Sequence record: PZ049714.1
Direction: 5' to 3' (one strand)
Length of the DNA: 2,853 bases
DNA from: a phage
Below the pieces are notes generated by a model, which saw only the letters and a program-made list of their open reading frames with translations, was not told the origin of the DNA and searched no databases. The translations under genes were made by a program, and so were the position numbers. Below, one piece after another: positions 1 through 2,853 of this stretch; position 1 is the stretch's first letter; every line of letters begins with the position of its first letter.

Positions 1-689
1 TGGTCGACGCCCATGTCCGACAGCGTCGTCAGTTCCTGCGCCAGCTCGATGCCTTCGGCGATGACCTGCGCGCGCGAGGCCCGCGCGATCTTGAGGATCG
101 ACTCGACGAACTCGCGTTTGACCACATCTTGGTGGATGCCGTCGATGAAGTAGCGATCGATCTTCACGTAATCCGGGCGCAGCTCCGACCATAGCCGCAG
201 GCTCGAATAGCCGGCGCCGAGATCGTCGAGGGCGATGCCGAAGCCCATCGCGCGGTAGTGATGCAGGGCCTTGTCCAGCAGTTCGAAATCGTCGGTCGGG
301 GTCTGTTCGGTCAGTTCGATGACCACCTGCCCGGCCGGGATGCCATAGGCATTGAGCAGTTCCAGGGTGCGGCCGGGCTTGTGCGCCGCTTCGAGCAAGG
401 TCTCGGGGGAGGCGTTGAGGAACAGCTTGCCGCGCAATGCGCCTTGGCTGTAGCGGCGGCAGGCGCTGCGCCGGCACGCCATTTCCAGCTCGTTCAGCCG
501 TCCGGCCTGCCGCGCGGTGGCCAGCAGGTTGATCGGCGAATGCAGCGGGCTGTTGGACGGGCCGCGACTCAGCGCTTCGTAACCGAGGATGCGGCGCTCG
601 GAGAGCGAGACGATGGGTTGGAACAGGGTGGTGATGTCGCCTTGAGCAAGGATGTGCCCCAGCATGCTCAACTGCTCGGTGACGGTCAT
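1..689 (-). CDS. EAL-domain cyclic-di-GMP phosphodiesterase, 3'-partial (continues beyond position 1); EAL domain begins ~20 residues from the N-terminus; possibly RapA-like
   Basis: Minus-strand translation from the ATG at 689..687 gives MTVTEQLSMLGHILAQGDITTLFQPIVSLSERRILGYEALSRG...LFLNASPE...VVIELTEQ...ALDDLGAGYSSLRLWSELRPDYVKIDRYFIDG...VIAEGIELAQ..., i.e. the canonical EAL-domain motifs in the correct N-to-C order (EAL, N, E, DDxGxGYSSL, KIDR, AEGIE). There are 229 complete codons with no stop to the window edge. An in-frame TGA lies 18 codons upstream of the ATG with no intervening ATG (one GTG sits inside the hairpin). Weak SD-like GAGA 6 nt upstream of the ATG. An alternative start at Met9 (ATG at 665..663) cannot be excluded. 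Confidence 0.88.
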   Translation of the reverse strand, partial: MTVTEQLSMLGHILAQGDITTLFQPIVSLSERRILGYEALSRGPSNSPLHSPINLLATARQAGRLNELEMACRRSACRRYSQGALRGKLFLNASPETLLEAAHKPGRTLELLNAYGIPAGQVVIELTEQTPTDDFELLDKALHHYRAMGFGIALDDLGAGYSSLRLWSELRPDYVKIDRYFIDGIHQDVVKREFVESILKIARASRAQVIAEGIELAQELTTLSDMGVD

Positions 690-707
690 GGAATTCTCGG
701 GCCGTGA

Positions 708-735
708 ATGAAAAAGGGCCACCGCTGTGGCCCTT
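708..735 (-). terminator. Rho-independent terminator-like hairpin (9-bp stem, 4-nt loop, U-tract) oriented for minus-strand transcription
   Basis: Plus 714-722 aagggccac pairs perfectly with 727-735 gtggccctt, loop 723-726. On the minus-strand RNA this reads AAGGGCCAC-AGCG-GUGGCCCUU followed by UUUCAUU (plus 711-715 is A5). The plus-strand RNA has no U-tract after the stem, so the element is unidirectional. It lies downstream of prc (past the REP doublet) and ~20 nt upstream of the EAL start codon. Confidence 0.6.
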
Positions 736-737
736 CC

Positions 738-771
738 ATTTCACGGTTCGCAGATGTCAGCTTGATGACAG
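738..771 (-). promoter_or_regulatory. Candidate PhoB-dependent promoter: Pho-box-like tandem 7-bp direct repeats (754..771) plus a -10-like hexamer (738..743) upstream of the EAL gene
   Basis: Minus strand reads 5'-CTGTCAT-caag-CTGACAT-3' (plus 771..754), against the Pho box consensus CTGTCAT-N4-CTGTCAY: first repeat 7/7, second 6/7, 11-bp periodicity, but the spacer is not A/T-rich. Exactly 10 bp downstream is TGAAAT (plus 743..738), a 4/6 match to TATAAT. The box sits at the position where a -35 would be, which is the classical Pho-promoter architecture. No convincing sigma70 -35 is present. Confidence 0.4.
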
Positions 772-907
772 GGATGGCGTTTTGCCGGTATTTGCGCCGG
801 TCATAATTGACACCTGCCCTCGCTGTCGGTGGCTATCCCAGGCAGGGTGCCACCGTGGCGCGCTTCGACGCCCCGGCGAGGGCAAATCCCCCCAGCGAAC
901 CGCTTTC

Positions 908-994
908 ATTGTAGGAGCCGGCTTGCCGGCGATCGGCGCTGCGCGTCGCCGCGGATCGCCGGCAAGGACTCGGCGTCCCCCAGGCTCCTACAGG
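908..994. repeat. Inverted REP doublet (REPIN-like extragenic palindrome) in the prc 3' flank
   Basis: Outer 10-bp inverted repeat tgtaggagcc (910-919) / ggctcctaca (983-992); inner 13-bp inverted repeat cttgccggcgatc (922-934) / gatcgccggcaag (954-966); 19-nt GC-rich central spacer. The right arm carries a 16-nt insertion relative to the left. The TGTAGGAGC / GCTCCTACA motif is characteristic of Pseudomonas REP families as I recall them. Confidence 0.5.
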
Positions 995-1115
995 GTGGTG
1001 CGAAAGGCCAATCCGATTTTACGCCCACGGTATTCCTGCTGCGCTCAGGACGCCGTGCCCGTGGTGCGCGGAGCGCACCCTACGCCCGCGTCGCACAGTA
1101 TTTTTGTTGCTCCGC

Positions 1116-2853
1116 CTAGTGCTTGGCCATGGCCGAGCTCAGCCCCAGGTAGTCGAGCAGGATACGGCCGCTCTCGGAGAGGTAGGCGTCGTCTTCCGGC
1201 TTGGGCTTGTCCATTTCCTGGTGCGGCGTGGTTTCCTCTTCCTTCTCCAGCTTGGCCAGCGGTTCCTCGCCCTTGGCCTGGCGCAGGGCGTTCTGCAGCG
1301 CCAGCTGGCGTTTCTCGATATCGGCCTGCTGGGCGCGGCGCTTCTCTTCGTTGAGGCTCACCGTGGTTTCGTGCATCAGCTCCTGCGCCAGGGCCAGGCG
1401 ATCACGGGTGAAGACGAAGTCGGGGTTCTCGCCGGTACGGGCTTCGTGACGTGCCTTCAGCTCGGCCAGGAACGGTTTGAACGGGTTCATGTCCGGGTTG
1501 ATCGCGGCGCGGATGCTGTCCCACGGCAGGGCCTCGGGCAGGGCGCTTTCGCCGATCTCCTTGGTGTCGACGTCGGCGGGGTAGGAAATGTCGGGAATCA
1601 CGCCCTGATGCTGGGTGCTCTGGCCCGAGACGCGGTAGAACTTGGCCAGGGTCAGTTTCAGTTCACCGTGGTTGAGCGGCTGGATGGTCTGCACGGTGCC
1701 CTTGCCGAAGGTCTGGCCGCCGAGGATCAAGCCGCGGTGGTAGTCCTGCATGGCGCCGGCGAAGATCTCCGAGGCGGATGCCGAAAGGCGGTTCACCAGG
1801 ACGGCCAGCGGACCCTTGTAGAAGGCGCCGACCTGCTCGTCGGCCAGCACGTCGACACGGCCATCGCTGTTGCGCACCAGCACCGTGGGGCCCTGGTCGA
1901 TGAACAGGCCGGTCAGCTCGGTGGCCTCCTGCAGGGAGCCGCCGCCGTTGTTGCGCAGGTCGATCACCACGCCATCGACCTTTTCCGCTTCCAGTTCGGA
2001 CAGCAGCTTCTTCACGTCGCGGGTGGTGCTCTTGTAGTTCTGGTCGCCGGCACGCAGCGCCTTGAAGTCGAGGTAGAAGGCCGGGATCTCGATGACGCCG
2101 AGCTTGAAGTTCTGCCCCTGGTGTTCGAGGTTCAGCACCGACTTCTTCGCCGCCTGTTCTTCGAGCTTCACCGCCTCGCGGGTGATGGCGACCACCTTGC
2201 TGTTCTGGTCGTTGGGTGCATTGCTCGCCGGGATCACCTCCAGGCGCACCACCGAGCCCTTCGGCCCGCGGATCAGCTTGACCACTTCGTCCAGGCGCCA
2301 GCCGATGACGTCGACCATTTCGTCGTTGGCCTGGGCCACGCCGATGATCCTGTCCGCCGGCGACAGCTGCTTGCTCTTCTCGGCCGGGCCTGCCGGCACC
2401 AGGCGCACGATCTTGACGTGCTCGTTGTCGCTCTGCAGCACCGCGCCGATGCCTTCCAGCGACAGGCTCATGTTGATGTCGAAGTTTTCCGGCGTTGTCC
2501 GGCGACAGGTACTGGGTGTGCGGGTCGTAGGATTGCGCGAAGGCGTTGATGTAGGTCTGGAACACGTCCTCGCCGCGGGTCTGGTTCAGCCGTGCCAGCT
2601 GGTTCTTGTAGCGCTTGGTCAGCAGTTCCTCGATCGCCTTCGGTTCCTTGCCGGCGATCTTCAGGCGCAGCACCTCGTCCTTCACGCGCTTGCGCCAGAG
2701 GTCGTCGAGCTCGGCGGCGTTCTTGGCCCAGGCGGCTTTCTCGCGATCGACCAGCAGCTCTTCGTCGACGCTGAAGTCGAAGCTGTCGACGCCCTTTTCC
2801 AGCAGGCCCAGCGCGTAGTTGAGGCGGTTCTGCAGGCGTTCCAGATGCCGCTT
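1116..2853 (-). CDS. prc: Tail-specific (C-terminal processing) protease Prc/Tsp, peptidase family S41; 5'-partial (N-terminal ~120 aa lie beyond 2853); reading frame interrupted by an apparent 1-bp insertion near 2479-2482, so a possible pseudogene or a sequencing error
   Basis: Minus-strand translation from 2853 down to ~2480 reads ...FQTYINAFAQSYDPHTQYLSPDNA, matching from memory the E. coli Prc region ...FAREIDPHTNYLSPRN. In the +1 frame, from the ATG at 2471 to the TAG stop at 1116-1118, it reads MSLSLEGIGAVLQ... (E. coli EMSLSLEGIGAVLQ), followed by a PDZ-like segment, IDLRNNGGGS, and the S41 catalytic dyad context RLSASASEIF...GQTFGKGTVQ (Ser codon ~1776-1778, Lys codon ~1701-1703, 25 residues apart as in Prc Ser430/Lys455). 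High GC3 codon usage on the minus strand. Confidence 0.92.

Follow-up and report, generated by a model that had tools for sequence, protein, structure and literature searches.

A terminator-like hairpin nested between a candidate PhoB-dependent promoter and the start codon of a rapA-type phosphodiesterase gene

Introduction

Why should a strong terminator lie between a promoter and the gene which that promoter is expected to serve? The question is raised by a 2,853-nt stretch of phage DNA (sequence record PZ049714.1), which was analysed here in full and is referred to as the window. Both of its genes are on the minus strand. The upstream gene, identified from open reading frames and Pfam matches, is the 3' part of prc (1116..2853, minus strand, with the stop codon ending at 1116), whose product is a tail-specific protease with S41, PDZ and DUF3340 domains. 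Downstream lies the 5' part of a rapA/PA3258-type gene (1..689, minus strand), with its EAL domain inside the window; a full-length orthologue encodes 598 amino acids and has the EAL-CBS-GGDEF layout of P. fluorescens RapA and P. aeruginosa PA3258, and the window's gene is of this type. The nearest genome locus is that of Pseudomonas lopnurensis (L001), with 97% amino-acid identity for the EAL protein and 98.3% DNA identity across the whole window.

RapA-type phosphodiesterases lower c-di-GMP and free cells from surfaces once phosphate is exhausted. Because they release cells in this way, leaky expression from prc, a constitutively needed gene, would be costly. In P. fluorescens Pf0-1, RapA is expressed in low phosphate through binding of PhoB~P to a Pho box that precedes rapA (PMC3032545). 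In P. aeruginosa PA14, expression of PA3258/PA14_21870 is down by a log2 value of 2.37 in a phoB mutant and the gene is listed in the primary PhoB regulon (PMC4513871 supplements). By analogy with these orthologues, the gene in the window would also be under Pho control. A preliminary description of this DNA had suggested that a hairpin in the leader of the EAL gene stops read-through from upstream, and that transcripts initiated at the gene's own promoter start within the stem and so escape it.

Results

Candidate promoter and hairpin in the window

Direct reading of the minus strand reveals a compact series of elements ahead of the EAL gene. The Pho box (CTGTCATCAAGCTGACAT, 771..754) is made of two 7-nt direct repeats separated by a 4-nt spacer (CTGTCAT CAAG CTGACAT), in agreement with the 18-bp, two-repeat definition of such sites, and the repeats fit the PhoB motif of two (T)GTCAT boxes derived from P. 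aeruginosa ChIP-seq (PMC4513871). A 10-nt spacer (CTGCGAACCG, 753..744) then separates the Pho box from the candidate -10 element TGAAAT (743..738). The gap from Pho box to -10 in PhoB-activated promoters of E. coli is 10 bp, and the spacing of the Pho promoter proposed in the preliminary description is therefore canonical. TGAAAT equals TATAAT at four of six positions, with G replacing the conserved A at -11; the hexamer variants TGCAAT and TCAAAT likewise have no A there. Because this base is missing, the assignment of the hexamer rests mainly on the 10-bp distance from the Pho box. When that distance was assumed, a Pho-box-like 18-mer was recovered in 77/77 loci from relatives. A standard promoter scan of the window called no promoter here, as expected for a promoter with no -35 element.

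Two other readings of the promoter were considered and dropped. A third PhoB half-site (CTGTCGT), lying over the -10 in most species, could have shifted the promoter; the window does not have this half-site, and no suitably spaced -10 would follow it. In the P. fluorescens lineage, the TGGCAATTTAATGCT motif was weighed as a sigma-54 element and rejected on its GG-to-GC spacing, which is one base short. As a separate observation, the 10-nt spacer and -10 (CATTCTGTCGTGAAAT) are unusually conserved for a promoter spacer in most loci (for example L022 3935-3947). Within CATTCTGTCGTGAAAT, CTGTCGT makes a further GTCAT-like repeat that continues the 11-bp phase of the two Pho-box repeats; in the clade of the window, CTGCGAACCGTGAAAT stands in place of CATTCTGTCGTGAAAT.

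The -10 is followed by a GG dinucleotide (737..736) and then by a hairpin with its 5' arm (AAGGGCCAC) at 735..727, a 4-nt loop (AGCG) at 726..723 and its 3' arm (GTGGCCCTT) at 722..714. The 9-bp stem comprises a 7-bp G+C-rich core, six pairs of which are G:C, and two A:U pairs in which the first two U of the U-rich tract pair also with A735 and A734. This tract (UUUUUCAUU, 715..707) opens with a run of five U (715..711); its portion beyond the stem is the tail TTTCATT (713..707), and the segment directly past the G+C core (UUUUUCAU) has six U in eight. The hairpin has the hallmarks of an intrinsic terminator, namely a G+C-rich stem with a short loop and a U-rich tract right behind the stem. 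The five-U run is 21 nt from the ATG of the EAL gene (689..687), and a GAGA likely to act as a Shine-Dalgarno element (698..695) stands 5 nt before the ATG in columns that are invariant or nearly so in an alignment of relatives. All of the positions given in the preliminary description for the -10, hairpin, U-tract and ATG are correct, and the hairpin does lie between the -10 and the start codon, with the stem beginning 2 nt past TGAAAT.

The minus-strand fold that had been suggested as a check, run on the 56-nt stretch 750..695, gave -30.4 kcal/mol with a z-score of -5.4, and none of 200 shuffled sequences folded equally well; the G+C core alone accounts for -13.4 kcal/mol. We scanned both strands of the 2,853-nt window for terminator-like sites with at least seven perfect base pairs, at least five of them G:C, a loop of 3-8 nt and at least five T in eight. 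Under those thresholds this hairpin is the sole such site, and 3.3% of 300 dinucleotide shuffles yield any site at all. The scan reads the hairpin on both strands, the plus-strand tail (TTCCATTT) being weak. A standard consensus promoter/terminator scan did not list the hairpin (714-735) on either strand, though its own stated criteria are satisfied here. An Rfam search at a permissive threshold matched no family in the hairpin region, and on this basis a known riboswitch or sRNA was ruled out.

The hairpin is enclosed by an outer, imperfect palindrome (CCGTGAA...TTCACGG, 746..702, minus strand), evident from both the fold and the alignment, whose halves CCGTGAA (746..740) and TTCACGG (708..702) pair in the predicted structure and would lengthen the hairpin in read-through RNA. 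The 5' half coincides with the conserved -10 region, and the 3' half (ATTCACGG) is restricted to the window's clade (L001-L003).

Conservation of the module in relatives

The region was compared across 80 loci encoding close relatives of the EAL protein, found in a scan of one genome per species and spanning Pseudomonas, Stutzerimonas, Metapseudomonas, Ectopseudomonas and allies. The complete series of Pho box, 10 nt, TGAAAT-like hexamer, hairpin, T-run, GAGA and ATG is present in about 78 of the 80. Likewise, CGTGAAAT or a close variant is found at most 140 nt from the ATG, with a hairpin almost immediately after it, in 78/80 loci. The module is carried by L013, L033, L037 and L055, the loci nearest to P. 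aeruginosa in the set. An alignment of 72 sequences shows conservation of the two GTCAT repeats (GTCAT-N6-GTCAT-type columns are invariant or nearly so), the CTGTCGTGAAAT block, the GAGA and the ATG, and the block from Pho box to hexamer is essentially ungapped, L014 being shifted by 1 nt.

The letters of the hairpin vary and its pairing is retained. There are 26 distinct basal 7-nt arms, so equivalent hairpins differ in sequence among relatives, and the changes between arms are compensatory. In a count anchored on the basal G:C pair of each sequence, and in that respect partly fitted to the structure, the basal seven pairs are 97.5% paired versus 29-59% in controls with the 3' partner displaced by 1-3 nt; every basal position except the outermost (anchor) pair shows multiple pair types, and G:U pairs are among those that keep the arms paired. 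RNAalifold returned no pairs for a MAFFT alignment of 72 leaders, because the variable length of the stem throws the 3' arms out of register. Stems range from 7 to 18 bp, and the paired G+C core plus loop occupies about 18-42 nt in relatives.

The edges of the hairpin are fixed. Its first G:C pair lies 1-5 nt past the -10 (mode 4), and the distance from the end of the stem to the ATG is 21-29 nt in 75/78 loci (mode 23). This fixed spacing could in part reflect inheritance within a very compact intergenic region as opposed to selection. At least six T in the 8 nt behind the stem are found in 66 of 78 loci, and the tract is weak or interrupted in the other 12. Several Stutzerimonas and Ectopseudomonas loci, and several other lineages, keep the hairpin with an interrupted or weak U-tract (3-5 T in eight), and L003 keeps the hairpin and has lost the U-tract. 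Where the U-tract is weak, the hairpin is thus better conserved than the terminator signal, which suggests that the stem may serve some purpose beyond termination, for instance at the 5' end of the mRNA.

Several loci depart from the common arrangement. L026 has gained about 250 nt ahead of the Pho box, an insertion with its own long hairpin followed by TTTT, and the nested hairpin has decayed, with loss of its 5' arm. This single case would be expected if the hairpin were under selection for terminating prc. L063 retains a complete module with a REP-like palindrome inserted between the U-tract and the ribosome-binding site. L045 has a degenerate Pho box, no prc upstream and a hairpin with no U-tract; it was considered as a natural experiment for the loss of prc and set aside, given the degenerate Pho box and upstream open reading frames with no Pfam match. 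In L004 (1-185), from a strain of S. stutzeri, other sequence has taken the place of everything before the hairpin loop, the promoter and 5' arm included. The contig begins 182 nt before the gene and the 3' arm (TGTGCGGCCCTTCGC) alone remains, which suggests a rearrangement or a mobile-element junction inside the hairpin. A search of a plasmid collection returned unrelated EAL genes only.

The neighbouring prc gene and the intergenic region

In 77 of the 80 loci the immediate upstream neighbour, in the same orientation, is prc. The region between prc and the EAL gene is typically 82-149 nt long, and in 74/77 loci the distance from the prc stop codon to the start of the Pho box is -4 to 47 nt. 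In 21 loci the prc stop and the Pho box are separated by 17 nt or less, where a terminator would not fit. No other terminator-like hairpin was seen downstream of prc in the short intergenic regions, which were inspected by eye and from folds rather than by a formal scan. Because no other such hairpin was seen, polymerases leaving prc must pass through both the Pho box and the -10 before they meet the nested hairpin. It follows from this order of elements that the promoter itself is unshielded, since a terminator placed behind a promoter does not protect it from polymerases arriving from prc. In PA14, prc and PA14_21870 were scored as separate transcription units (PMC3460626 supplement), an indirect hint of termination between them.

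The window differs from most relatives in having an intergenic region of 426 nt, so that 380 nt with REP-like palindromes intervene between prc and the hairpin. Judged by its inverted repeats and by the intergenic lengths in relatives, the spacer between prc and the Pho box (772..1115, minus strand) is a lineage-specific insertion, common only to L001 and L002. Inverted repeats within it, upstream of the Pho box, form nested REP-like palindromes (910-992) and another palindrome at about 1062-1078. The proposal that the hairpin insulates the EAL gene from prc and the REP region together may apply as far as prc is concerned, since in almost every relative nothing else resembling a terminator was seen to separate the two genes; the REP region, as a lineage-specific insertion, is not part of the general arrangement. 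In no locus compared was an insertion seen between the -10 and the stem.

Two features of the intergenic region may be recorded alongside. REP-like insertions (window 910-992 and 1043-1080; L026 3660-3895; L063 3888-3975) hit different sub-segments in different lineages: those of the window, L001, L002 and L026 precede the Pho box, and that of L063 separates the U-tract from the ribosome-binding site. In the P. fluorescens lineage, prc and the Pho box are 28-47 nt apart, and a small hairpin that covaries and has no U-tract occupies this gap. The gap (for example L022 3880-3925, L035 3854-3910) carries a conserved GATGGCAATTTAATG motif followed by the covarying hairpin or palindrome of 7-8 bp, which has the first Pho half-site as its 3' arm; the window does not contain it. 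Examples of its arms are GACGCTCC..GGAGCGTC and GACGATCC..GGATCGTC, and in L035 (GAAGCTCC..GGAGCTTC) a base of the Pho box and its partner have both changed.

Predicted transcription start and residual hairpin

Transcription by sigma-70 polymerase is expected to start about 7 nt past the last base of the -10. We infer from this geometry a start zone at 732..729 (minus strand), 6-9 nt past the last T of TGAAAT. Of 73 distinct orthologous sequences, 72 have a purine at position 6 after the -10 and 23 have one at position 7; the corresponding purines in the window are G732 and G731. Our literature search found no mapped transcription start or 3' end for the prc-rapA locus in any species, any Pseudomonas included, and the PA14 operon table for rich medium gives the start site of PA14_21870 as NA (PMC3460626 supplement).

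A start 6-9 nt past the -10 would sit within the 5' arm in 69-70 of the 73 distinct sequences, and the earlier proposal of a start in the arm, made for 7-9 nt, agrees with this geometry. The hairpin left to such an RNA would have no unpaired 5' nucleotides in 69-70/73 sequences, its stability would be reduced by a median of 6-12 kcal/mol and, in most sequences, 2-5 nt, mostly C, would be left unpaired before the U-tract. In the window, an RNA begun at G731 would keep a stem of 5 bp (-7.6 kcal/mol), with CC between this stem and the U-tract. One begun at G732 would keep a stem of 6 bp (-10.9 kcal/mol) with 1 nt (C) before the U-tract, and in that case partial termination could occur and escape would be incomplete. 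The suggestion that the gene's own mRNA escapes for want of a full stem is accordingly supported in that basal pairs would be lost, but has to be qualified for the window, where a start at G732 keeps six pairs. In the P. fluorescens lineage the truncated hairpin would still fold with about -22 kcal/mol and is followed by CC and seven U, so that some self-attenuation of the gene's own transcripts is likely there.

Discussion

The reading that we favour, albeit with modest confidence, is that the hairpin is the terminator of prc nested in the Pho promoter and leader of the phosphodiesterase gene, where it blocks read-through from prc and lets PhoB-driven transcripts begun inside the stem pass, probably with a protective stem at their 5' end. 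The hairpin and U-tract would form an intrinsic terminator for prc, and the rapA-type gene would have this terminator within its PhoB-dependent promoter and 5' leader. Polymerase coming from prc would transcribe the Pho box, the -10, the full hairpin and the U-tract, and would then stop, keeping the phosphodiesterase gene silent unless PhoB is active. PhoB~P on the Pho box would recruit sigma-70 polymerase to TGAAAT, and transcription would begin 6-9 nt downstream, in the 5' arm. The resulting RNA would lack the G-run that pairs with the C-run beside the U-tract, leaving a shorter hairpin flush with the 5' end and 2-5 nt off the U-tract. Intrinsic termination requires a stem that reaches the U-tract, and for this reason a truncated and displaced stem should terminate poorly, so that the transcript runs on into the gene. 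The flush hairpin may also shield the mRNA from decay that depends on the 5' end. We infer all four of the functional steps here from the arrangement of the sequence: where transcription starts, that transcripts from prc end at the hairpin, that those of the phosphodiesterase gene escape it, and that the residual stem stabilises them.

A broader claim, which we advance tentatively and which may well prove too strong, is that this is a selected design throughout the genus, in which one terminator discriminates between transcripts by their origin, being complete in RNA from prc and, in RNA from the PhoB promoter, disabled and converted into a stabilising, cap-like 5' stem. Were this so, an intergenic region of 90-150 nt would suffice for strict Pho-only control of a c-di-GMP phosphodiesterase.

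Other readings give the hairpin a different role. It might be an ordinary prc terminator that abuts the next promoter, its closeness a by-product of compactness with no selected effect on phosphodiesterase transcripts. The intergenic regions are indeed short (82-149 nt) and inherited across the genus, a promoter and a terminator are each needed, and the fixed edges may reflect scarcity of dispensable DNA. Insertions are nevertheless tolerated upstream of the Pho box (the window, L002, L026), in the top or loop of the hairpin and once between the U-tract and the ribosome-binding site (L063), with none seen between the -10 and the stem. Moreover, the gene's own transcript must still start in or next to the stem, making some consequence unavoidable, and we regard an effect-free juxtaposition as unlikely. 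Less probable in our estimation is a leader attenuator, in which PhoB-driven transcripts hold enough of the hairpin to terminate and expression of the phosphodiesterase is damped or conditionally gated, as in frd/ampC. This would suit the still stable truncated hairpins of the P. fluorescens lineage (about -22 kcal/mol, then CC and U7) and the 6-bp stem that a start at G732 would leave 1 nt from the U-tract in the window, and frd/ampC and nlpD1/penA provide precedents. Against it, the basal G:C pairs would be excluded from the RNA at every start 6-9 nt past the -10, and the geometry places such starts inside the arm in all but a few sequences, not upstream of the complete hairpin. There is no leader open reading frame, just 45-70 nt separate the -10 from the ATG, leader folds contain the hairpin and weak local pairs with no alternative anti-terminator pairing, and no Rfam family matches the region. 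In B. pseudomallei, furthermore, a promoter beside the terminator abolished termination (PMC6045580).

The proportion of loci with an intact U-tract bears on whether the hairpin might instead be primarily a 5'-terminal stabiliser of phosphodiesterase mRNA, with termination of prc secondary. E. coli mRNAs are stabilised by 5'-terminal stem-loops in the work cited in PMC3997798 (Emory 1992; Bouvet & Belasco 1992), the residual hairpin would be flush with the predicted 5' end in 69-70/73 sequences, and the hairpin is retained despite a weak or lost U-tract in L003, L007, L010, L014 and L045. A stabiliser has no need, however, of the six or more T in eight kept behind the stem in 66/78 loci, nor of the G-run upstream of the predicted start, which co-varies with the C-run and matters only for RNA begun further upstream; we consider this reading very unlikely. 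Finally, the 45-nt imperfect palindrome at 702-746 could be a DNA operator for a dimeric regulator, as the preliminary description had raised. The palindrome is real and its arms pair in the fold, but its outer arms are clade-specific on the 3' side and part of the -10 region on the 5' side, and the inner arms, of which there are 26 kinds, change letters yet keep pairing, G:U included, which is the signature of an RNA stem; an operator here seems scarcely credible.

Parts of this arrangement have counterparts elsewhere. As far as E. coli frd/ampC is described in PMC6045580, a single hairpin and U-tract ends the upstream transcript and sits in the 5' leader of the next gene, as here, and the next promoter is likewise situated within the last part of the upstream transcription unit or right at its end. 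In that account the ampC start lies upstream of the whole hairpin, so that ampC's own transcripts are attenuated, whereas at the present locus 1-5 nt separate the -10 from the stem, within which the start is predicted to fall, and the promoter, with its Pho box, is activator-dependent. The nlpD1 terminator (TERM264) of B. pseudomallei is also a functional terminator of an upstream gene inside the 5' UTR of a downstream gene, penA, where it does terminate; the authors draw a comparison with E. coli, where the frd terminator serves to attenuate ampC (PMC6045580). A G-78A mutation that creates a -10 about 5 nt before that hairpin gives high penA expression despite the terminator, and a constitutive promoter centred 24 bp upstream of the hairpin does so too (PMC6045580). 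The penA promoter arose by a resistance mutation, the wild type being an operon with attenuation, and its start site was unmappable (PMC6045580); by contrast, a promoter beside the hairpin is the wild-type state here and is conserved across the genus.

The promoter itself resembles PhoB-dependent promoters in general, a class to which P. fluorescens rapA and P. aeruginosa PA3258 are assigned, with two GTCAT-type repeats 11 bp apart that replace the -35 and lie 10 bp before the -10; in the literature on these two genes we found no description of a terminator hairpin nested directly past the -10. The ompA and papA stem-loops, as presented in PMC3997798, stabilise transcripts with essentially no unpaired 5' nucleotides, as is predicted here, and differ in that the DNA of the present hairpin also encodes the full terminator of an upstream gene; the present stem may have a similar stabilising effect. 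Intrinsic terminators, Pho-box promoters and the overlap of an upstream terminator with a downstream leader (frd/ampC, nlpD1/penA) are thus already known. What seems new is a wild-type arrangement, conserved across the genus, with the -10 abutting the stem and the start predicted inside it. If transcription does start inside the stem, the arrangement would be a compact natural insulator that blocks read-through without taxing the downstream gene, which would explain why a strong terminator stands between a promoter and its own gene, and the design could be reused in synthetic operons.

The arrangement also matters for annotation. Gene callers probably often set the start of the EAL gene at a GTG within the hairpin, and terminator predictors would wrongly mark the gene as attenuated. 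This GTG lies in frame within the 3' arm and adds 11 codons to the EAL open reading frame (L001 3968-4003; window 689-722). Many database homologues of the EAL protein are 610-620 amino acids long, not 598, and in the PA14 annotation prc and PA14_21870 are only 38 nt apart. Annotations of the gene probably often put its start codon too far upstream, which places the promoter and hairpin in a 'coding' region.

A separate observation concerns prc itself. The window carries one extra base at about 2491-2492 (GTTTTCCGGCG at 2484-2494, plus strand, versus GTTTTCCGCA in L001, with L002 likewise lacking the base), which shifts the prc frame and yields open reading frames at 1116..2471 and 1663..2685. 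This break is either a sequencing error or a sign that prc is a pseudogene in the window's strain.
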